A stretch of 64,000 bases of DNA, from the IMG/VR virus record IMGVR_UViG_3300025120_010521; one strand, written 5' to 3'. Below the pieces are notes generated by a model, which ran no database searches, was not told the DNA's origin, and saw only the letters and a program-made list of their open reading frames with translations. Shown here piece after piece: positions 13,330 through 27,486 of the stretch. The position numbers and the translations under genes were made by a program. Numbering within the stretch: position 1 is the first letter of the stretch; each line of letters begins with the position of its first letter. Source of the stretch: a virus. Its lineage: Duplodnaviria; Caudoviricetes.

Positions 13330-13734
13330 TTATAATGTCTCCGACTGTGTAAATTCTAAATTAATCGACCCTGTTGTTGCCAACGTACCACCGTTTAACA
13401 CAACTCCATCCATAGAAGCTTCTAATCTGCCTAATGGATTTACACCTTGTGCAAAAACATCAGGGTGTTCAACAGCAAATTTAAAAATATAGCCATTGCC
13501 TGTTAGTGTTGGTGCACCATTGGCATTTAAATCAGCAACATTTACAGGATCATTTGAAATAATTACCTGTGAAAACATTGCAATCATTTGAACTATTGCA
13601 TCAAAGTCTTTTTGTGTAGCATCTGCATAGCTACCAGTTTGTGAAATATCAACTGTTGTATACATAATATAAAACTGTAGGTTACTACTAATAAATTCGC
13701 CACCTCTTGCTGATCCATTAATTCTTACTGTCAT
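13330..13734 (-). CDS. Putative virion structural protein
   Basis: 134-aa G/A/T/N-rich ORF within a late cluster. Confidence 0.45.
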   Translation of the reverse strand: MTVRINGSARGGEFISSNLQFYIMYTTVDISQTGSYADATQKDFDAIVQMIAMFSQVIISNDPVNVADLNANGAPTLTGNGYIFKFAVEHPDVFAQGVNPLGRLEASMDGVVLNGGTLATTGSINLEFTQSETL

Positions 13735-15716
13735 TATTTTTTCTTCCTTAAATCAAAGTTTTTCATTTTATCTGCGTAAGATGGACCTTTACCTCTTCCT
13801 AATTTATATCCAATATATGCTCCTGCTAACGCCGCCCCAGTTGCCATTGCTTTTGATGTTTTTACTTTTTCGCCATCAACATAATCACGTTCACGTGATA
13901 GTTTTTGTAAGTACGACATCATTGACGACTTAGGTGCGTTTGCTCTAAAGTAGTTATATAAACTTGAAACTAAAGTTCTTTTTTCTCTTGTTTTTAAATT
14001 TTCCCAATCACCTGCTAATCTTTTCATTGATCTTAATTTACTATCATTAACAAATAACATTGACTGCAATTGCATTAGCATTCTTTTTTCTGCATCTGCA
14101 TTTGCTCCAGATGATGCAATGTGATTTAAAAATGTTTTAATCTGTGTCATATTAGGACGCATTCTTTTTAATAATATTTCACTATTCTTTTCATCTGCAA
14201 ATTTTGTAATTGATCCTTTACCAAATAAGGCGTGTAACATTACGTACAAATCTGTACCATTTGATCTAAAGTAATCAAAGTTGCCATAGCTAATAGTTCT
14301 ATTTGCATAGGTACTTGCTACAGAAGAATATTTAAATTCTCTATTTAAAACTTGAAGTGCAATCATATGTGCAAAAGCATTATCAGCCATATCACGTGCT
14401 GAGTAATCAGATACTCCGTGACGAGATCTAAACATTCTTGCTTCTGTCATTAAATCATTTACAAAATCTAAATTTATTGTTTCGCTTTTCATAAAATTTT
14501 TCCTACTAAAGTCTAATCTATCTACAACTTTTACTGCACTACCAATATGATCAATTGCAACAAATCCTTCTGGATCTCTAACTTTTAGCTCTCCTTCTAC
14601 TTCTTCAAAACTATCAATTGCTTTAATGTTTGATAGTTTCTTGTATAAGACGTCTTTTATAGCACCTAATTTAAGCCACAGTGCGTAAAAACTCATCATA
14701 TTACTCTTATTAGTATTTAAGTAATTTAAGCCAATTTGTAGTGCATTTAGACGTCTTTGTCCTGCAGGGCCATCACGTCCTGTTTTTAATGATGTTATTT
14801 TTTCTTCTGCTCTACGTGTGTAGTCTTGTACAAATTGATTGTAAAACTGTTGAGGATCTTGTTGTATAGAATTCTGTTTTATATTTGTATTCATATTTGC
14901 CGCAATGTTTATTTTTAAATCATTGCCTGCATCTGAGCCATCTAAAAATTCAAAAGCATTACCAATTGTTCCTAAATATTTTTGGGCGTCAGCAATTGCT
15001 GAATCAACTGCTTCTGATTCTTGTGCCGTCATAGTTGCCATTCCTGAAAAATCTTTTATATATGCATCATCAAACCAAACATCTGCAGTTTCATTTAATT
15101 CAGATAAGTCAACTTTAAATGATGCTGACATTTTATCTAAACTTTCACCATCGTATGACGTATGGAAAACAATACCAACTTTTGCAGATTTCATTTTTTG
15201 TGCTAGTTGTGAATCGCTTGGTACTGCGTATGTAATTGTATTTGGTCTAAATGTAATGTATGATTTGCCTTCAAATGATCTTTCTTGTAAATCACCTTGT
15301 GTAAACATTAAGTCACCTTGAAGTACATTTTGTATATTTAATTTTGATAAATGTTGTAATACTGTATTAAGTTTTTGACGTAATCCGCTTTTATCGTTAT
15401 CGCCTGCATCTGCATGATTTTGTTGAATATCATTTGCTGACTTATTTAATTTTGGGGACTTTGCAAAAACACCTTTAGTGCCTACAAAAAATTTGCCGTC
15501 GCTTGGATCACGTCCGCAAACTATTGCAGGAGACCCATCCCATTTTGTAGTAACATTAAATTTTTTTGGTGAATGACCTTTTACTATTGTTGATAAGTTT
15601 TTTAAAAAACGTATGGCTTCTACAGCACCTTTTTTACCTTTGAATAAAGATAAATCTTCAAGATGTGTTAAGTGTGTGTTTACGTCTTCTGTAATATTAA
15701 GTTCTGTCAGGTTCAT
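13734..15716 (-). CDS. Ligase/nucleotidyltransferase-fold protein (KxDG) with an extra C-terminal domain; DUF6267-like
   Basis: NTHLTHLEDL start; motif I TTKWDGSPAI, LQGDLMF, PEGFVA, VKVVDR. Confidence 0.65.
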   Translation of the reverse strand: MNLTELNITEDVNTHLTHLEDLSLFKGKKGAVEAIRFLKNLSTIVKGHSPKKFNVTTKWDGSPAIVCGRDPSDGKFFVGTKGVFAKSPKLNKSANDIQQNHADAGDNDKSGLRQKLNTVLQHLSKLNIQNVLQGDLMFTQGDLQERSFEGKSYITFRPNTITYAVPSDSQLAQKMKSAKVGIVFHTSYDGESLDKMSASFKVDLSELNETADVWFDDAYIKDFSGMATMTAQESEAVDSAIADAQKYLGTIGNAFEFLDGSDAGNDLKINIAANMNTNIKQNSIQQDPQQFYNQFVQDYTRRAEEKITSLKTGRDGPAGQRRLNALQIGLNYLNTNKSNMMSFYALWLKLGAIKDVLYKKLSNIKAIDSFEEVEGELKVRDPEGFVAIDHIGSAVKVVDRLDFSRKNFMKSETINLDFVNDLMTEARMFRSRHGVSDYSARDMADNAFAHMIALQVLNREFKYSSVASTYANRTISYGNFDYFRSNGTDLYVMLHALFGKGSITKFADEKNSEILLKRMRPNMTQIKTFLNHIASSGANADAEKRMLMQLQSMLFVNDSKLRSMKRLAGDWENLKTREKRTLVSSLYNYFRANAPKSSMMSYLQKLSRERDYVDGEKVKTSKAMATGAALAGAYIGYKLGRGKGPSYADKMKNFDLRKKK

Positions 15717-17457: not shown

Positions 17458-17486
17458 ACTATACAATATTAATTTTCATTTCGCAA
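17458..17486 (-). promoter_or_regulatory. sigma70 promoter TTGCGA-N17-TATAGT, 7 nt before helicase ATG
   Basis: Read directly; no SD between the box and ATG. Confidence 0.6.
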
Positions 17487-18086
17487 GTGTTTCCAGCTGT
17501 AAGGAAACTCCTCATTACAGAATTCGTCAATTGAATCTGCTATTTCTCTTGTTTCTTTTTGAGTATCTTCAGCACATCTTAATTCACACACTCTGGCAAA
17601 TGCATATAATGTTCCACTCCAATACCACTCTGTCATCATATTCTGTGGCAATACCATTCTTGCTAATTCAGGGGCAATGCCTTTGGCCAGCATATCGTTG
17701 TAGGTTGTATTAGCATTTTTTATTGTATTAGCGATATTGTACTCAATTGTTTCACTGCTACTACCTTGTTTTTTATCTTCAGCTCGTAATCTCCAATTAG
17801 TAGGCATATAGTATTCTGGTTCATAATCAACATAACGTCTGCTGATTTCGTTCCAACTTAAACCCACTTGGTGTTTAACTAATTGCCTTGCAACAAAGAT
17901 TGGTGCTTTAATTCTAAACTGTACACTACAATGTGCAAACGGAGACCAATGATTGTGTTTTGCTAAAAATGATATTAACTTTTCATCTGATGCTTCAAAC
18001 ACTTCTTTGTTTTTTCCAAAGCTCACTCTTGCGGCATTTACTACAGTTAGGTCTGAACCCATTTTATCAATTAACGTAACTTCCAC
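17469..18086 (-). CDS. thyX: Flavin-dependent thymidylate synthase
   Basis: VVNAARVSF, HWSPF, RQLVKHQVGLSWNEISRRY, ARMVLPQ. Confidence 0.96.
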   Translation of the reverse strand: MEVTLIDKMGSDLTVVNAARVSFGKNKEVFEASDEKLISFLAKHNHWSPFAHCSVQFRIKAPIFVARQLVKHQVGLSWNEISRRYVDYEPEYYMPTNWRLRAEDKKQGSSSETIEYNIANTIKNANTTYNDMLAKGIAPELARMVLPQNMMTEWYWSGTLYAFARVCELRCAEDTQKETREIADSIDEFCNEEFPYSWKHLRNEN

Positions 18087-18400
18087 TAATTTATACCTAA
18101 CACTTTTTGCAATTCGCCATCTTGATACATTTCTTTTATGATATCACAACCGCCAATAAATTCTCCATTAACATAAAGTTGTGGTATAGTTGGCCAATCA
18201 CTGAAAACTTTAATACCTTCTCTAAGATTTTGATCCGCTAATACATCTACACCTGCAAACTCAACTTTTAAACCTTTTAGTATATTTGCAACTGCCATAG
18301 AAAATCCACATTGCGGTGCATCTGGTGTGCCTTTCATAAACAAGCATATATTGTTTTTTTCAATATTGTTTTGTATAAAGTTTTTAGTTTCTTCATTCAT
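18086..18400 (-). CDS. grxD: Monothiol glutaredoxin Grx4
   Basis: LFMKGTP..PQCGFS, WPTIPQLY, GGCDI. Confidence 0.96.
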   Translation of the reverse strand: MNEETKNFIQNNIEKNNICLFMKGTPDAPQCGFSMAVANILKGLKVEFAGVDVLADQNLREGIKVFSDWPTIPQLYVNGEFIGGCDIIKEMYQDGELQKVLGIN

Positions 18401-18411
18401 ACTAGTACTCC

Positions 18412-19017
18412 TTAATAAGTTGAAACAATTTTATCTGCAATACCGTACTTAACTGCTTCTTTGGCACTTAACCAAACATCTTCAGCAGGTAATAGTATTT
18501 CTCTAATTTTCTTTTCGCTTAAACCAGTACACTTTTTATAATGATCTATCATCCTTGCTGTACTTAATTCAAACTCTTTTACTCTTGCAAATAGTTCGTG
18601 TTCTTTACCTACACTGCCCCAACTGTATTGATGTGATAGTATAGATGTGTTTGGTGTAATAACCCTACGACCTTTTGTACCACTCATAAATGTTAATAGT
18701 CCACATGATGCAATCATACCAAGTCCTACTGTTTTCACAGGAATTGCTGATCCTTTCATTGTGTCTATCAATGCAAATGCTGAATGTACTTGTCCACCCG
18801 GCGAATTAATTACCAATGTTAATTCTTTTGGTCTTGATGAATCTGGTAATAGATTTTTTTCTATTATTGCTTGTATAACTGGTTTAGTTGTATTGCTATC
18901 AAACCCATCACTAAAATACATAATACCAGCTTCCCACATTAACATTCCTGGTTGTAATGGTGGTTGTTTTGGATCTGGTCCTGATTTTTTCTTATTGTCT
19001 TTTTCTAAATTAGCCAT
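18412..19017 (-). CDS. clpP: ClpP protease proteolytic subunit
   Basis: INSPGG, GMIASCG (catalytic Ser), ILSHQ (His), EDVWLSAKEAVKYGIAD. Confidence 0.92.
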   Translation of the reverse strand: MANLEKDNKKKSGPDPKQPPLQPGMLMWEAGIMYFSDGFDSNTTKPVIQAIIEKNLLPDSSRPKELTLVINSPGGQVHSAFALIDTMKGSAIPVKTVGLGMIASCGLLTFMSGTKGRRVITPNTSILSHQYSWGSVGKEHELFARVKEFELSTARMIDHYKKCTGLSEKKIREILLPAEDVWLSAKEAVKYGIADKIVSTY

Positions 19018-20051: not shown

Positions 20052-21203
20052 TTAAATCTTATAGGTATTATTCCCTACTTTAACTCCAGATAATCCATCT
20101 AATTGTTGTTTGAATCTATTTGGCTTTCCTTTAATTGCTTGTCCTATTTCTGTACAAACATCCGCTGGTGATATTCTATGTGTGCTTGCCATATCTAATA
20201 TGCTAAGAGTTCTATCATATATAGTTGTAATTAATTTAAAAGATTCTTGCTCATCTCTTGATTTTAAGATAACGCCTGCTGATCTAAATACTCCGCCGGC
20301 ATTTGCAATTGTATCTGGAACATATAATATTTTATGATCAAGTAATTGTTGTTTAGCATTTAACGGATCAACTACATCTAATTGATTATTAGCCGCACCG
20401 CAAATAATCTTGCAGTTCATATTAGAGATTCTTGATACTCTTATATCATTTCCCATTGCACAAGGAGAATATATGTCAACTTCTTTTTTATGTATTTCGT
20501 TGTGATCCACTACTTCAATTTTAAAAGGATATTTTTTTTGTAAATCATTAATGTATTGTATTTTATCATCATTTTTATCTGCAACAATTAAAGTGGCTCC
20601 ATCATCTAAAACATAATTTGCTAATTGATAACCTACTTTACCTATTCCTTTTATAGCAATTTTTAATCCATTTAAAGAATCTTTTTCTAATTTAAATTTT
20701 ACTCCTGCCTTCATTGCATTATAAACTCCAAATGCTGTACATGAGCTTCCAATATCTGGATCTGAATACGTTGTAGTAAAGTCTGTATATCTTCTTAAAT
20801 TTTGTAGCATGTCAAAGTTAAATCCAACATCAAGACCTCCATAATAATCACCATTGAGATAATTAATAAGTTCACCAAGGTAAGGATAAATTCTTTTTTC
20901 ATCTACACCAAACGCACCAATATCTTTATGATAAGATTGTTGTACTACAGTTTTTCCACCACTTAATTTAATACCTGATACCATACATTTTTCAGTCATT
21001 GCTTCTGAAAGTTTTTGTACATCTAAATATGGTCTTTGATTATCTTTATAATTAAAATATCGTATACCACCAAAGGCAGGACCATTTTCTAATGTATGAA
21101 TTGCAATATAGGCACTGAAGTTACTTTGTTCATGATATCCATGAACCACTCTCTCAAAACCATGTGTTTTGATTTCTTTGATATCCATTTGCTGGATTGG
21201 CAT
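20052..21203 (-). CDS. Leu/Phe/Val dehydrogenase (ELFV family)
   Basis: GPAFGGIRY, MTEKC, GGKTV (catalytic Lys), TAFGV, KGIGKVG Rossmann motif, CGAANNQL, NAGGV. Confidence 0.9.
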   Translation of the reverse strand: MPIQQMDIKEIKTHGFERVVHGYHEQSNFSAYIAIHTLENGPAFGGIRYFNYKDNQRPYLDVQKLSEAMTEKCMVSGIKLSGGKTVVQQSYHKDIGAFGVDEKRIYPYLGELINYLNGDYYGGLDVGFNFDMLQNLRRYTDFTTTYSDPDIGSSCTAFGVYNAMKAGVKFKLEKDSLNGLKIAIKGIGKVGYQLANYVLDDGATLIVADKNDDKIQYINDLQKKYPFKIEVVDHNEIHKKEVDIYSPCAMGNDIRVSRISNMNCKIICGAANNQLDVVDPLNAKQQLLDHKILYVPDTIANAGGVFRSAGVILKSRDEQESFKLITTIYDRTLSILDMASTHRISPADVCTEIGQAIKGKPNRFKQQLDGLSGVKVGNNTYKI

Positions 21204-21204
21204 G

Positions 21205-22041
21205 TTAATTCCTAACTAAGACTTTTGTAATTTTTCCTACGTCAGCGACCGCTGTTGGCAAATAAATTACTCGTATCCATTTTGCCATACTTTTAAAATT
21301 ATATGATGCTAGTGTTGTTGAGTTAGTTAATGAAACATAATCATTTGATTGCCCGTCTAACTTTATATGGAACCATTCTGTGTGTGATGTAGTATTTGCT
21401 GTACTTTCCATAGAACCTTCAACAATAAAATCTCCATCAAATCCATTTGAATACAATGCTATTGTATGACTAGCTGATGTTAAGTTTCTTTCACTTGCTC
21501 CTGAAACTGCACTTGAATAATACCAAGTTTCTCCTGTTGCTGACTTTCCTATATTTTGTTTTGTCCAGTTTGGATTGGCAGAATCAAATTTAATTTCTTC
21601 TGTGTTTCTTGGATTTGAATTAATACCTTCAACTACTTCTAAAGTGCCGTTTACAGCTTCATTAAGGTCTGTATACACTGCTTGTTGCTCTGAACTAGTA
21701 TTTGTCGTATATAATGAATAGTTATAAAATGTACCTGCAACATTATCAATTGCCGACGCTGGTAAGTTTAGCTGTGCTAAACCTTTTGCCGCACCTGTTA
21801 CTGTTAATGGTCTCGAAAGTATTGATTCATTTGTGTTTACATCGATTACGTTAAATGTTACAGTTAAATTAGTTAAATCAACTGCTTTTCTATCATTGTC
21901 TTTTAACGCAAACTTCACAGTGTTATCAATACCTTGATACAATTTTATAGTTTTATCATACATTGTTGTACTACCTTGACTTGCACTCGTATTTACTATC
22001 ACTGTATGAGTATCGTCATATACATATACCGTTACTGTCAT
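21205..22041 (-). CDS. Virion structural protein, BppU_N-like Ig domain
   Basis: LYQGIDNTVKFALKDNDRKAVDLT...GLAQL pattern; late box 22067-22074. Confidence 0.6.
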   Translation of the reverse strand: MTVTVYVYDDTHTVIVNTSASQGSTTMYDKTIKLYQGIDNTVKFALKDNDRKAVDLTNLTVTFNVIDVNTNESILSRPLTVTGAAKGLAQLNLPASAIDNVAGTFYNYSLYTTNTSSEQQAVYTDLNEAVNGTLEVVEGINSNPRNTEEIKFDSANPNWTKQNIGKSATGETWYYSSAVSGASERNLTSASHTIALYSNGFDGDFIVEGSMESTANTTSHTEWFHIKLDGQSNDYVSLTNSTTLASYNFKSMAKWIRVIYLPTAVADVGKITKVLVRN

Positions 22042-22114
22042 ACTATGGTTTCCTTAAACTTACATATATTTATGTTGCTAAATAGAATTAGTGAGTATAT
22101 AATAAAGAAATATT

Positions 22115-22492
22115 TTGAGCATGGATTATAACGAATTGTCAGATAAGTTTCCCTTTTTATCGTGTATAAAGCACGGTTTAAACGAATATGTTGGTATTAT
22201 ACAAAATCAAGACGATTTTGTAACTAGTATCTACATCTATGACGACATTCCTTCAGAACAACTTAAAGCAGATTTTTTAAGATTAGGTGATGTATGGTGG
22301 TGGGAATCAAACAGAGTAATTCCTATTAATATATTTTTAGCAGGTGAGTTTTCTTTATATCAAAATTGGCTTAAAACTTTTACTACTAAAGATATTAAAA
22401 TGATATTTGGTCCAACTACTAGCTTAAATAATATTGTAAGAAAAAGAATTAAAAGACGTCAAATACAATTAATCAAAAAAACTAACGGTTAA
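22115..22492 (+). CDS. Conserved-looking hypothetical protein (start may be ATG 22121)
   Basis: ORF track; WWWES motif; divergent CTAAATA at 22078-22084. Confidence 0.7.
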   Translation: MSMDYNELSDKFPFLSCIKHGLNEYVGIIQNQDDFVTSIYIYDDIPSEQLKADFLRLGDVWWWESNRVIPINIFLAGEFSLYQNWLKTFTTKDIKMIFGPTTSLNNIVRKRIKRRQIQLIKKTNG

Positions 22493-23070
22493 ACAATAAG
22501 ATTAGATAGCAAATTTAATTGTACACAAATTGCCAATGCGTATCCAATTGCATGGCTTTTCTTAAAATAGTATGAATTATCTTTTGGTTTTTTCCAAACA
22601 TTTTCATTTATATCATCCCAGTTTTGTTTAAGTAAATGTCTTTTTGCTGGACGTATAATTGCTAGTACTGCCGCTAATTGCTCTACTGACTTTGGTTTTA
22701 ATGTACTAAGAATATCAAAATGATTATGTATATGAAATAGTTGTTCTACTATTTCTTTATGCTCTAATAAACTCCAGTCTGGTTCTTGATCTATTAGTTT
22801 TTGTAAATGATTCTCATCTTTTACTTTTTCATATACTCCTACATTTAATATATCTAATTTAAAATATCCTCTATCTTCAGCTTCTTTATAGTCAACGTTT
22901 GCTGTTTTAGTAAATGGATGTAATGGTATATCTGTAAAATAAACTCCAGTGTTATGTTTTTTAATTTCACCGTTGTTTATAATACTAGCAGGAATATGTT
23001 TCAGTTTTTCTAATAAAACATCTCTGTCTTTAACATCAATATCAATATCTGTTTTTACTATATTTGTCAT
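22489..23070 (-). CDS. dnaE: Miniature DNA polymerase III alpha (DnaE) catalytic-core protein
   Basis: TDIDID (PDxDxD), KHNTGVYF (KHAGGV), FKLDILN (KxDxLG), LAIIRP (LxRPG), FKKSHAIGYA (FNKSHxxxYA) in collinear order. Confidence 0.85.
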   Translation of the reverse strand: MTNIVKTDIDIDVKDRDVLLEKLKHIPASIINNGEIKKHNTGVYFTDIPLHPFTKTANVDYKEAEDRGYFKLDILNVGVYEKVKDENHLQKLIDQEPDWSLLEHKEIVEQLFHIHNHFDILSTLKPKSVEQLAAVLAIIRPAKRHLLKQNWDDINENVWKKPKDNSYYFKKSHAIGYALAICVQLNLLSNLIV

Positions 23071-23528
23071 TCTTGATTATGTCTTGTATCTTTTTGTTGT
23101 TTAATATGTTCTATTTGTTTTTCAGTTAGTCCTGCATTTTCATATTCTTCTTCTTCTGTCATTGGAAAATTTAATGTCATTTGAGTATCATAACCTGTTA
23201 AAGATTCAAAGTCTGGTTCAAAAGTAGTTGTTCCATAATCACTTATAGATATGCCTCCGCCTGTATAACTAACGTCAAAAGTATAGTCATTGTCTTCTTC
23301 AAGACCAACACCATATGACGATCGCTGTAATTGTGATATCTTATTATTGACTTCATTCATACTTTTTTTCCAGTCGTCTAATTTTTTTCTTTGTCTTAAA
23401 ATTTCATCTTTGTGTATTAAATGTACTAAAGTTTTTAATTCTTCCCATTTTTCTTTTACACTTTCGTTATCAGTTTTGTTAGCAACTCTGGCTACAATCT
23501 CTGGAATCCCATCATTATATTTTGTCAT
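23067..23528 (-). CDS. Hypothetical protein, coiled N-half and acidic C-half
   Basis: ORF track, translationally coupled to both neighbours. Confidence 0.55.
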   Translation of the reverse strand: MTKYNDGIPEIVARVANKTDNESVKEKWEELKTLVHLIHKDEILRQRKKLDDWKKSMNEVNNKISQLQRSSYGVGLEEDNDYTFDVSYTGGGISISDYGTTTFEPDFESLTGYDTQMTLNFPMTEEEEYENAGLTEKQIEHIKQQKDTRHNQE

Positions 23529-24205
23529 TATAGACCTGCCTTTTCTAGCACCTGTTCAACAAATCGAACATCTGGTTGTGCCATTTGGAACTTGGCTGTC
23601 CAATAGTCAGGATCAATATAATCATGTATTAGTCCAACCTGTTCATTATTAAAACTCTCTAATAGCTTAACACCACTTTCACAATTATACAATACCCAAG
23701 GTGACAGTTTTCCAGATCTAATAAAATGTACTGCTCTATTTGGTGTTATACTTTCTAAACAATCATTAAAATTGCTACCATTATCAATACCCCAACGTTT
23801 CATTATAATGACTGCTCTTTCTACTGCCGTTTGAGCTGATTCATTTTTTAAATGTTCTTTAATATATTTTTCATACACAGAATCTAAATGCCACCTATCA
23901 ATCTTTATCATATTTTTCAACAAGTAATCAACATACTTGCTAGGATCATCCACATGTACATCATACAAGTATCTACCAAATTTTGTAAATGCTGTGTAAT
24001 ATTTGCTTTTTGCAAAGTCATCATATGATCTATCTTTTTGTGTTTGTGGCATTGTTGATTTATAAAAGTATTGATATGATCTAAATGCTAATTGTACAAA
24101 ACGTTCATCTTGTTGTTGATAACGTCTTTTTGGTTCGCACAGATGTACCGATAACGTTGTTTCTTTTGTAAATTTTTTTCCACAATACTTACACTCAAAC
24201 ATCAC
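23528..24205 (-). CDS. C2H2-like Zn-finger protein of unknown function
   Basis: FECKYCGKKFTKETTLSVHLC N-terminus. Confidence 0.7.
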   Translation of the reverse strand: MMFECKYCGKKFTKETTLSVHLCEPKRRYQQQDERFVQLAFRSYQYFYKSTMPQTQKDRSYDDFAKSKYYTAFTKFGRYLYDVHVDDPSKYVDYLLKNMIKIDRWHLDSVYEKYIKEHLKNESAQTAVERAVIIMKRWGIDNGSNFNDCLESITPNRAVHFIRSGKLSPWVLYNCESGVKLLESFNNEQVGLIHDYIDPDYWTAKFQMAQPDVRFVEQVLEKAGL

Positions 24206-24684
24206 TTACCTATTTCTTTTATTTCTTTGTCAGTCCATCCTTGTTGACGTGCTAACTTTTTAAACCCATCAACATCATTAATTTGCTTTAATGCTTCTAC
24301 TTCATCGTTTTTAGCATGTGGAAAACACTCTGCTAATAACTTATCTATGCCAGTTTTTTTACCTTTACCTTTGGGTGCTTTTACCCATGGGTGAAACATT
24401 TTCTTTTTAATGCCTGCAAGTGATAGTAACTTCCAAAACATTTCTGAATCACCTTCATGTTTTTGTGTAGTACCAAAATGTTTGTTTGCAAATTCATTTA
24501 CAGAAAGTATGTAGTGTTCTTTAAATGCTTTTTGACCTTGAACATTACTTGTAAATCTCATTGCAGTATATGGCGAAAATGTTTTCTTTTCTTCGTCATC
24601 AAGTGTGTTATACCATTTTGAGTTTGCCATATCGATGTTGTATAACATTTGATTTAAATTTATTTTTTTAGTAGTTGTTGCCAC
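24202..24684 (-). CDS. Putative clamp-loader small subunit (gp62-like)
   Basis: FSPYTAMRF...LSVNEFAN resembles the T4 gp62 pattern; replication context. Confidence 0.45.
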   Translation of the reverse strand: MATTTKKINLNQMLYNIDMANSKWYNTLDDEEKKTFSPYTAMRFTSNVQGQKAFKEHYILSVNEFANKHFGTTQKHEGDSEMFWKLLSLAGIKKKMFHPWVKAPKGKGKKTGIDKLLAECFPHAKNDEVEALKQINDVDGFKKLARQQGWTDKEIKEIGK

Positions 24685-24851
24685 TATACCATTTCCTCTA
24701 TAATACCTAATATTTCAGCAAGTATGAACAGTACTCCTGCAAATAAAAAATTACCGTAGATTAAAAACCCTGCGGCTGTTATCCTTATTACACTCTTTAC
24801 TATGCTTACTATAAAATGACCCATACCTGGATCTACTTTTGCTATCTTCAT
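24684..24851 (-). CDS. Small membrane protein, 55 aa (MKIAKVDPGMGHFIVSIVKSVIRITAAGFLIYGNFLFAGVLFILAEILGIIEEMV)
   Basis: Below track cutoff; fills the gap exactly with ATGA and TAGTG overlaps; two hydrophobic segments. Confidence 0.75.
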   Translation of the reverse strand: MKIAKVDPGMGHFIVSIVKSVIRITAAGFLIYGNFLFAGVLFILAEILGIIEEMV

Positions 24852-25348
24852 ATTAAATCTCCTACTTGTATTACATCAGGAATTTGATTAAGCTCTTTTG
24901 CAAAGTAAACACAATCTGGTTTGCTTCCTACGTTTAATGGAGCTGTTAATATATGTCCATTTTTAAGTTTAGGAAAAAACCATTTTACTTCCTGAAATAC
25001 ATTTACTATTTTAACTTCTTTAAAGTCATGTGTATACCCTGAAAATGGATTATATACATAAGCTTCAAATCCTCTATCATTTAGACTAGTTAATGGAACC
25101 ATTTCACATTGCCCCATTTCTTTTTCACCAATTAGTATACTCCAATCCATTGGCATTTCTAATGTTTGTCCTCCAATGTCAAGAATCACTGCTGGTGCAT
25201 TAAACGATTCTAAAAATATAAGTGGAATATAAAAATAATCTAATGATTTGGGATTAGTACAATCCAATACACAATATTGTAGATCATCTACTTCATTTGG
25301 TACTGCATTTAAATTATACGTATTATTATCGACTGTTAATATGTTCAT
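24848..25348 (-). CDS. Beta-rich hypothetical protein coupled to uvsW
   Basis: ORF track; ATGA overlap with uvsW stop. Confidence 0.7.
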   Translation of the reverse strand: MNILTVDNNTYNLNAVPNEVDDLQYCVLDCTNPKSLDYFYIPLIFLESFNAPAVILDIGGQTLEMPMDWSILIGEKEMGQCEMVPLTSLNDRGFEAYVYNPFSGYTHDFKEVKIVNVFQEVKWFFPKLKNGHILTAPLNVGSKPDCVYFAKELNQIPDVIQVGDLI

Positions 25349-26802
25349 TCTATGTTTACTTTCTCAATTGTAAAAGGATAATTTGCTTCTTTATAAAATT
25401 TTTTTCTAGTTGTTAAATGACGTTTAGAAAATTTACAAGCAGATGTTATATCCCATATTTCTACATGGTCTTTGTCTTCTGCTCTTCTAATACCTCTTCC
25501 AATTGACTGTATTACTCTTACAAAAGATTTACCCGGTTCTATTAATACCAAATTAAATATTCTTGGTAAATTAATTCCTACTGCCGCAACACCATATGTA
25601 GCAATAATAACTTTATGTTGTTCTGTAGCAATTTCATCATATTCTTCTTCTCTATCTTCTAGTTTAGTTCTACCTTGAATGAAAACTGAATCAACAACTA
25701 TGTCTTCAAGTGCTTGTCCTGTTTTTATTCTATCAACTAAAATAAGTGTGTTTCCTTCTGCTCTCATTGTATCAACTAAATCAGCAATAAATTGTAACCG
25801 TGTTTGATTAGTTACCAAATACGTTTGTTCACCTGCATAAGTTGAAAATGCATTTGTTTCTTGTGTTTGGATTACATTTACATGACAATTCGCTAACACC
25901 CCTTTGCTTTGTAGTTCACTTGCTGATAATGTATTAATAACTTCACCAAGACTTGCTTGTAGTGATGCCATTTCATAATCTTCTTTTGGTATTGTTCCTG
26001 TAAGACCCCAACGTAAAGGTACTGTTGCAAATGGACCTGTTAAAAGTGTTTTAAGAACATCTGCTTTAGCTTGATGTACTTCGTCTACCATAACACATAC
26101 TACGCCTTCTAAAAAGTCACCTATGTTTACTTCTGCTTCAAATTTTTTAGTCTTCTTAAGCATGTTATTTAAACTTTGCCAAGTACAAACTGTGTGTTGT
26201 TTATCAAATTCTTTTCTTTCACCGTAGTATACTCCAACATCTAAACCAAGTGTTTTATAATCTAATTCTGTTTGTGTAACTAACGACTTGTTAGGAACAA
26301 TAACAATTGATCTTCCATATGGTTCAATTAACTGTGACAGTGTTGCTGTAATAATTGTTTTACCAGCACCTGTGGCAATTTCTTGTAAACATTGTGGATT
26401 TTCTAAAAATTTGTTTATAGTTTCTACTTGATAATCTCTTAATACAATTGGTTGCCCAGCCAATGGATGCTTTGGTCCCCAAGTCTTTTTAAAATGTAAA
26501 CTTTCATCAATTTTTTCAAATTTAAATTCATGTACATTTCTATTATCTTCTATATCGATTTCATAATCTTGATCTTCAATAACTGGAAGTATTCTATCTA
26601 ATAAGTTTAAATATGTTCTGCCACCTATATCACAAAAACGTATATTTCCATCCCATCTACCTAATTTATAAGCAGGTAAATGATATGCATATGGTAAAAA
26701 GAATTTAAGTTTATCAGAAATTTTACGTCTTGTAATAACATCAAGACCTTCAAACTTCACATTGACTTCATCTTTTATAACTAACTTCGCGACTTTAGAC
26801 AT
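25345..26802 (-). CDS. uvsW: UvsW-like SF2 helicase
   Basis: LRDYQ, ATGAGKT, MVDEVH, GLTGT, QSIGRGIR. Confidence 0.93.
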   Translation of the reverse strand: MSKVAKLVIKDEVNVKFEGLDVITRRKISDKLKFFLPYAYHLPAYKLGRWDGNIRFCDIGGRTYLNLLDRILPVIEDQDYEIDIEDNRNVHEFKFEKIDESLHFKKTWGPKHPLAGQPIVLRDYQVETINKFLENPQCLQEIATGAGKTIITATLSQLIEPYGRSIVIVPNKSLVTQTELDYKTLGLDVGVYYGERKEFDKQHTVCTWQSLNNMLKKTKKFEAEVNIGDFLEGVVCVMVDEVHQAKADVLKTLLTGPFATVPLRWGLTGTIPKEDYEMASLQASLGEVINTLSASELQSKGVLANCHVNVIQTQETNAFSTYAGEQTYLVTNQTRLQFIADLVDTMRAEGNTLILVDRIKTGQALEDIVVDSVFIQGRTKLEDREEEYDEIATEQHKVIIATYGVAAVGINLPRIFNLVLIEPGKSFVRVIQSIGRGIRRAEDKDHVEIWDITSACKFSKRHLTTRKKFYKEANYPFTIEKVNIE

Positions 26803-26808
26803 AACTTT

Positions 26809-26837
26809 ATAATAACTTATTTTAAGAAAAAATGCAA
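26809..26837 (-). promoter_or_regulatory. sigma70 promoter TTGCAT-N17-TATTAT, 6 nt before uvsW ATG
   Basis: Read directly from sequence. Confidence 0.65.
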
Positions 26838-26844
26838 GTGTTTA

Positions 26845-27486
26845 CTAATTAAAATTAGATACAATTTGGCCTCTTATATCAACTGGTAAGTCTTTATAGT
26901 ATCCTTCTTTGTGTATCTTTAGAATAATTTGTTTTAATCTATTAGTATATTCTTTACCAAGCTCACTCCATGCTACTAAAAAATTTGACAATGTTGTTGC
27001 ATTTGTGTATCCATACATTTTAATTTCCCAACTTCTTGCATTTCTAAATTCTTCATATGCAGGATGATTATTTAAAATTTGTATATAATCTTGTATACAA
27101 GAACAAAGTGATTTGTATTTACGAACTCCCCAGTTTGCATTTGGTCTGCCTTTTGCTTTCATATGTGGTATATTGTCTAAGTCCCAAGTTCTTATGCCAA
27201 AGAAATTATTTCCTTCTTTAGCAAATCTAGATTGGCCCCATGCACTTTCATATGCCGCCATAGCAACAATTAAATCAAATGGTACTTGTTTTTCTAAAGG
27301 ATATGATTGATAATTACTATATAATCCTTCAACACATCTAAAAATTTGTTTTACAAACTGTTCGTTAGTTTCAATTGTATTTTTTTCTATTTCAATAGTA
27401 ACATTATCATTAGCTAATGTTTGAGGGAAAAACACTATTGCTAAAGAAATTACCATTCCTATTATTCCTACTTTTAAAAGTTTCAT
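26845..27486 (-). CDS. Bax/GH73-like glucosaminidase (peptidoglycan hydrolase) with N-terminal signal/TM segment
   Basis: AMAAYESAWGQSRFAKEGNNFFGI, YIQILNNHPAYEEFR; hydrophobic N-terminus. Confidence 0.85.
   Translation of the reverse strand: MKLLKVGIIGMVISLAIVFFPQTLANDNVTIEIEKNTIETNEQFVKQIFRCVEGLYSNYQSYPLEKQVPFDLIVAMAAYESAWGQSRFAKEGNNFFGIRTWDLDNIPHMKAKGRPNANWGVRKYKSLCSCIQDYIQILNNHPAYEEFRNARSWEIKMYGYTNATTLSNFLVAWSELGKEYTNRLKQIILKIHKEGYYKDLPVDIRGQIVSNFN

Follow-up and report, generated by a model that had tools for sequence, protein, structure and literature searches.

The C-family DNA polymerases DnaE and PolC (E. coli 2HNH, Taq 2HPI/3E0D, Mtb 5LEW and Geobacillus PolC 3F2B) are proteins of about 1,100–1,400 amino acids, with a canonical Pfam architecture of PHP (PF02811), PF07733, fingers (PF17657), HhH (PF14579) and OB domains on a single chain of more than 1,000 residues. 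In cyanobacteria, dnaE is split into two genes, dnaE-n and dnaE-c, which lie far apart and whose products are joined by a split intein via protein trans-splicing. A split minimal DNA polymerase III alpha has been described computationally for group 2.2 jumbo phages (Iyer et al. 2021, Viruses 13:63, section 3.4.1; PMC7824862), and its authors offer this enzyme as a model of the ancestral C-family polymerase. We found no bench work on any member of this system in the searchable literature, where that article was the only one to turn up, and the omics paper on phage PA5oct does not mention the gene.

Here we analysed a window of 64 kb (the whole stretch of phage DNA that was available to us, with a low GC content of about 32% in the source phage) that encodes a 193-residue protein, P0001. 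We conclude that P0001 is very probably the C-terminal unit (C-unit) of the minimal PolIII-alpha-like (C-family) DNA polymerase that group 2.2 jumbo phages encode in two pieces (Table 1). P0001 is equal in size to the corresponding unit in the published section (PMC7824862; phrog_11778), starts just before the DxDxD motif, carries the invariant motifs and matches the profile over its full length. Its relatives also share the separate and distant N-terminal unit (N-unit) with a GRGS motif as well as the family B polymerase (PolB), and, as far as that section describes the system, P0001 differs from it in nothing by kind. P0001 therefore belongs to a kind that is already published: when a T4-like giant phage has a 'mini-DnaE' ORF, that ORF belongs to a known, recurrent two-gene system and does not represent a new kind of polymerase. 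Relative to the text of that section, our analysis adds natural fusions of the two units, a predicted interface between them and a conserved C2H2 zinc-finger neighbour.

Table 1. Features of the window at and around the P0001 gene, in order of position
Feature	Coordinates	Strand	Description
660-aa protein	13734–15716	minus	strong full-length DUF6267 match (1.5e-98)
ThyX (PF02511), CGFS glutaredoxin (PF00462), ClpP-family protease (PF00574)	17469–19017	minus	between DnaB and primase
Amino-acid dehydrogenase, Glu/Leu/Phe/Val type	20052–21203	minus	PF00208 + PF02812; between replication genes
orf125	22115–22492	plus	convergent; 52/58 loci; no family match
P0001 (C-unit)	22489–23070	minus	193 aa; very probable C-terminal (Mg2+- and template-binding) unit of a split minimal PolIII-alpha
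orf153	23067–23528	minus	ATGA-coupled to the C-unit; acidic; no family match
ZnF225	23528–24205	minus	225 aa; N-terminal classical C2H2 zinc finger, then an all-helical domain
orf160	24202–24684	minus	conserved neighbour, 55/58 loci
orf166	24848–25348	minus	phrog_11279; 56/58 loci
UvsW-like SF2 DNA helicase	25345–26802	minus	heads a tightly packed same-strand string ending at the C-unit

P0001 is a reduced relative of C-family polymerases

The original prediction, made from the DNA letters alone, described an intact ORF with five C-family motifs in a fixed order, and both points were confirmed. The frame is open from its ATG start, and P0001 contains TDIDID (residues 7–12), KHNTGVY (38–44), EAEDRGYFKLDIL (63–75), LAIIRP (136–141) and FKKSHAIGYA (169–178). 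The claim of a complete catalytic triad was right as to the residues, D8, D10 and D73, all of which are present; the active site as a whole is incomplete, as P0001 has no GRGS motif, the palm's dNTP-binding element, which is located elsewhere. The ATG of P0001 overlaps the stop codon of the upstream orf153 (ATGA, 23070–23067), which bears out the proposed coupling to this neighbour, and its own stop overlaps the 3′ end of the convergent orf125 by 4 nt. A promoter and terminator scan of positions 21900–27000 returned the same counts as in shuffled sequence.

P0001 had no match in Pfam at E ≤ 0.1. Among PHROGs profiles, it matched phrog_11778 ('DNA polymerase') with an E value of 2.7e-75, residues 5–191 aligning to positions 5–194 of 197, and it weakly matched phrog_405, a PolIII-alpha profile of 1,190 positions (E 4.5e-6; positions 559–678). 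A profile built from 24 homologs and compared with PDB sequences matched PolIII-alpha chains only, albeit with weak E values (0.04–0.12), and the matching segments were collinear with Mtb DnaE1: DIDID corresponded to residues 413–424, the RP segment to 638–663 and KSHA to 774–788.

Structural comparison gave the same assignment. The best AF2 model of P0001 reached a pLDDT of 89.1 and a pTM of 0.69; the other four of the five models of the lone chain were lower, at pLDDT 67–78. All of the top 17 Foldseek matches to the best model were DnaE or PolC, and these were its sole significant structural matches. In VIA-align, the model aligned over its whole length (192 residues) to Taq DnaE (3e0d, 456–837) with Z 9.3 and an rmsd of 5.7, to E. 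coli DnaE (2hnh, 401–780) with Z 8.8 and, again over its whole length, to PolC (966–1295), compared with Z 3.9 for the best unrelated chain. The comparison with E. coli and Taq DnaE that had been proposed as a check thus revealed palm homology, and the likeness of P0001 to C-family polymerases is not due to chance.

P0001 shares with DnaE and PolC the strands of the Pol-beta-like palm, the Asp triad and the fingers motifs RP(G) and (N/K)KSH. It differs from them in size and in having its palm split over two polypeptides, and it contains no PHP, thumb, clamp-binding, HhH, OB or tau-binding region and only a small part of the fingers, so that the canonical Pfam architecture is not found in it. 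Its 193 residues span about 380 residues of a full-length DnaE, and the regions equal to E. coli residues 1–400 and to everything after about 780 are missing. Alignment to E. coli 401–780 alone agrees with the original prediction that the PHP, thumb, clamp-binding and OB regions and most of the fingers are absent. Going by the DnaE domain map, we take the deletions to have removed the thumb and the greater part of the index finger; what precedes the DxD strand and what follows the KSH helix is missing as well. The palm in P0001 is only the second half of a Pol-beta-like palm.

A maintained family in jumbo phages

Using tblastn, we found P0001 homologs of the same size in 96 phage records, all of them jumbo phages, including PA5oct, Atu_ph07, XacN1 and the RaK2 group. 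Identity to P0001 was 57% for the PA5oct-like phages, the highest for any cultured phage, and about 44% for the RaK2/121Q/GAP32 group. Homologs were also present at 57 IMG/VR loci, with identity of up to 87%. A megablast search of the phage collection with the 5 kb around the P0001 gene gave no match. Several GenBank records label the homologs 'DNA polymerase' or 'DNA polymerase III alpha' (PA5oct-like, 121Q, GAP32 and K64-1). An exhaustive profile search with a cut-off of E ≤ 1e-3 recovered 603 clusters defined at 50% identity, and the family profile matched the ORF in the window at 4.9e-100.

P0001 covers about one-sixth of a normal DnaE and is invisible to Pfam, as might be a decayed remnant or an assembly artefact of a full-length dnaE. 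However, the size of the family argues against this reading, as do its uniform length and its selection. Full-length members measured about 185–215 residues among the 150 clusters listed (of 603), and are not full-length DnaE proteins; all 41 extracted homologs (185–210 residues) begin 1–12 residues ahead of DxDxD. Over 24 sequences, reaching down to about 40% identity, the catalytic Asp residues were invariant, together with further positions (D8, D10, D12, H39, G42, K71, D73, R140, P141, K143, K171 and H173). The dN/dS of P0001 against its relatives was 0.09–0.16, and PHP, HhH and a further finger domain were nowhere to be found in three related whole genomes. Family size, uniform length and purifying selection refute the remnant reading, whose probability we put at close to nil, and support the conclusion that P0001 is a maintained family member and not a decayed fragment. 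The conservation of the Asp residues and the length of the homologs had been named in advance as points on which the original prediction could fail, and dN/dS as a check; each came out in its favour.

A distant N-unit and its predicted pairing with the C-unit

We searched three whole-genome relatives for the missing half of the palm: a phage judged complete (328 kb, flanked by terminal repeats), whose C-unit shares 82% identity with P0001; a second phage of 318 kb; and RaK2. All three encode, far from the C-unit, an ORF of 169–182 residues that matches PF07733 (positions 19–96) above the Pfam cut-off. These N-units match positions 357–429 of a PolIII-alpha profile, and the C-units match positions 576–678 and 777–809 of the same profile. 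The C terminus of the N-unit reads ...G-V-G-R-G-S-S...EFLK in the three relatives, and G-x-G-R-G-S is invariant in 20 sequences. A separate N-unit is present in annotated phages too. At the point where the N-unit ends, E. coli DnaE continues into the PDxDxD strand, which places the split inside the Pol-beta-like core: the helix that follows the GS loop is on the N-unit, and the metal-binding strand is on the C-unit.

In the 328-kb relative, the positions of the two units are 10 kb and 241 kb, about 98 kb apart across the genome ends. Within the 64-kb window, tblastn and HMM searches found neither an N-unit nor PolB. By word look-up and not by alignment, the N-unit of a relative was found to have 9 of 34 words in common with a stretch in the same genome as P0001, 72.3 kb before the start of the window. 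This N-unit look-alike would lie about 95 kb from the C-unit, a spacing that resembles that in the 328-kb relative. The original prediction had suggested a subunit of a split polymerase with its partner among the neighbouring ORFs at 23067–24684. The first part holds, in that the polymerase is split, natural and of the C family; the partner is instead the distant N-unit of about 170–182 residues, whose C-terminal end coincides with the start of P0001.

The three whole genomes also bear on the place of this polymerase in replication. The window has helicase, primase, SSB-like and recombination genes yet no PolB, and P0001 had been described as standing where a gp43 would be expected, as if the mini-polymerase were the main replicase in place of gp43. 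However, each of the three relatives, the 328-kb phage among them, has a PolB that scores above the Pfam cut-off, which does not support that idea, and the mini-polymerase has no proofreading, thumb or clamp-binding parts. We therefore consider its use as the main replicase extremely unlikely. PHP, HhH and PolA were absent from all three genomes, and the fingers model matched only inside the C-unit, below the cut-off. Two open frames, of 764 and 338 residues, share the PolB match in the 318-kb relative (G002:C1:211424-214333; loci L060 and L062), which may represent a split family B polymerase; such split enzymes have been reported in some T4-like phages.

As in cyanobacteria, a C-family polymerase would here be made from two distant genes of one genome. 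Unlike the cyanobacterial protein, the jumbo-phage pair has no intein halves and is split inside the palm. Searches of the N-unit and the C-unit for intein/Hint families gave no match, and the termini of the units agree: the C-unit starts 1–12 residues before DxDxD and at most a few residues separate EFLK from the end of the N-unit, leaving no room for an intein. Both observations rule out intein trans-splicing of the two units, and their assembly must accordingly be non-covalent.

We next consider whether the units fit together. Complex prediction for the cognate pair of the 328-kb relative gave a score of 0.90, compared with 0.00 for the best of three controls. In a benchmark, 58 of 80 solved complexes attained this mark, as did 2 of 110 mismatched pairs; these counts hold only roughly for the custom alignments used here. 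The runs agreed in at least 92% of contacts, with a partner pLDDT of at least 90. In the predicted interface, residues 141–154 of the N-unit (the strand and the GRGS loop) touch residues 2–11 of the C-unit (the DxDxD strand), and this modelled interface is the expected one. The cognate pair is thus predicted to assemble, although the prediction may mirror the likeness to DnaE and not the binding of these particular copies, because the two units are halves of a fold that has been solved as a single chain.

Three natural single-chain proteins, P0070, P0152 and P0153, contain both units. They are 375–376 residues long, share 78–81% identity with one another and come from separate contigs and sources. 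In each, the N-unit is followed by the C-unit, with a linker of about 8 residues and no extra domain, and hhalign matched the first half to the N-unit profile with a probability of 99.8% (E 1.5e-27). The fusion genes (loci L119:1066-2193 and L120:519-1649, on very AT-rich metagenome contigs with a GC content of 25–27%) occupy the same type of locus as the C-unit; downstream lie a small convergent ORF and a weak homolog of orf278. Either they preserve an ancestral, unsplit state or they arose by secondary fusion, and they provide independent Rosetta-stone support for the pairing of the two units.

The fusions also weigh on the suggestion that P0001 is a stand-alone nucleotidyltransferase, for example for tailing or priming, that acts without an N-unit. 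All three metal-binding Asp residues are in P0001, and the lone chain can be folded confidently in silico. Nevertheless, four of the five AF2 models of that chain remained at the lower pLDDT given above; the nucleotide-binding elements of the Pol-beta-like core (its first strand, helices and GS loop) are missing from P0001 and in this family are on the N-unit; an N-unit was found in every whole record tested (3/3); and the natural fusions link the two units in N-to-C order. Because half of the Pol-beta-like core is missing from P0001, we regard a stand-alone enzyme as very unlikely.

Neighbouring genes and possible function

The window carries T4-type portal, terminase and sheath genes along with genes for UvsW, UvsX, UvsY, gp32-like and DnaB proteins. 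The original prediction of a T4-style replisome block stands for the DnaB/gp41-like, primase and UvsW-like genes, and the block also includes UvsY, UvsX and gp32-like genes; the gp62-like assignment of orf160 was not confirmed by HMMs. That assignment as T4 gp62 was a language-model lead only (one look-alike cluster, with PF16790 on 13% of its members), and PF16790 had no match in the three whole records or in orf160 itself. For orf166, the scores to Hint/intein-like clusters and to one PF07733-bearing cluster were all below 0.85 and therefore of no use.

The gene order UvsW-like helicase, orf166, orf160, ZnF225, C-unit, convergent orf125, orf278, primase and DnaB recurs in nearly all of 58 related loci, down to 39% identity of the C-unit. 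The region is collinear across the clade, a virion-protein-like gene included, and synteny alone is therefore no proof of a physical link, as it may reflect shared ancestry. The amino-acid dehydrogenase gene was found in only 11 of the 58 loci and is likely to be a lineage-specific auxiliary metabolic gene. Some loci carry insertions directly downstream of the C-unit, before the orf125 homolog (2 kb in L009 and about 4.2 kb in L035/L053); these could be mobile elements, for example homing endonucleases.

Two of the neighbours behave differently across these loci. The gene orf153 is present in 14 of 58 and absent from 44, and is a lineage-specific gene rather than a conserved partner. ZnF225 lies upstream of the C-unit on the same strand in all 58, directly abutting it in many. 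Its C2H2 finger was recognized at a profile E value of 4e-8, with C4, C7, H20 and C22 invariant; to our knowledge, classical C2H2 fingers are unusual in phages. The helical body was modelled at a pLDDT of 92. Foldseek gave no match at E ≤ 0.001, and the best VIA-align match among 48,161 chains had Z 4.8, which need not mean a new fold; no polymerase chain was among the fold matches listed. For the ten genera listed, the counts per genus are identical between the 94 jumbo-phage records that contain ZnF225 and the 96 records of the C-unit. We consider ZnF225 a candidate accessory factor.

These patterns raise the question of whether adjacent genes complete the split polymerase, with ZnF225, orf160 or orf153 binding the C-unit and supplying thumb, fingers or DNA-binding parts. 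The C-unit follows ZnF225, orf160, orf166 and the UvsW-like helicase in 54–58 of the 58 loci over the full range of identity, neighbouring genes overlap or abut, ZnF225 parallels the C-unit in its genus counts for the ten genera listed, and its true C2H2 finger is a nucleic-acid-binding element. However, the missing half of the palm is already accounted for by the distant N-unit, the fusions hold no additional domain, and the confident model of ZnF225 gave no convincing fold match, with no polymerase chain among the matches listed. The absence of orf153 from most loci and the collinearity of the whole region count against this reading as well, and we judge it unlikely.

Our preferred reading remains the two-piece polymerase. 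The C-unit carries D8 and D10 on its metal-binding strand, K71-x-D73 on another strand, and the RP and KSH motifs in a cut-down fingers module. The N-unit, a protein of about 180 residues encoded far off, would supply the first half of the palm and the G-x-G-R-G-S dNTP-binding loop. We infer that the units would join non-covalently, without an intein, and that the IVWGVGRGS strand of the N-unit would pair with the DxDxD strand of the C-unit to form an active core of about 370 residues that has no PHP, thumb, proofreading, clamp-binding or OB domains. The mini-polymerase would then work beside the phage PolB and not replace it. Its job would probably be the synthesis of short DNA stretches in repair, recombination-dependent replication or primer extension, a suggestion that fits the position of the C-unit gene between recombination genes and primase–helicase genes. 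Since neither a thumb nor the bulk of the fingers is left, templated synthesis by the pair is an assumption, and the pair may perform a different nucleotidyl-transfer reaction.

In Bacillus, DnaE extends primers and then hands over to PolC. On a broader and quite improbable reading, the two units would form the catalytic centre of a dedicated second DNA-synthesis module together with ZnF225, orf160, orf166 and the UvsW-like helicase, for instance a polymerase for D-loop or gap extension or for primer extension before PolB takes over, with ZnF225 replacing the thumb and DNA-gripping parts.

With the two-piece polymerase as the preferred reading, its predicted core of about 370 residues, in two chains or in one in the fusions, would be by far the smallest catalytic core of a bacterial-type replicase. 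The split point, the predicted interface and the single-chain forms should ease the design of experiments on this family of jumbo-phage enzymes, and the fusions could be expressed as one protein.
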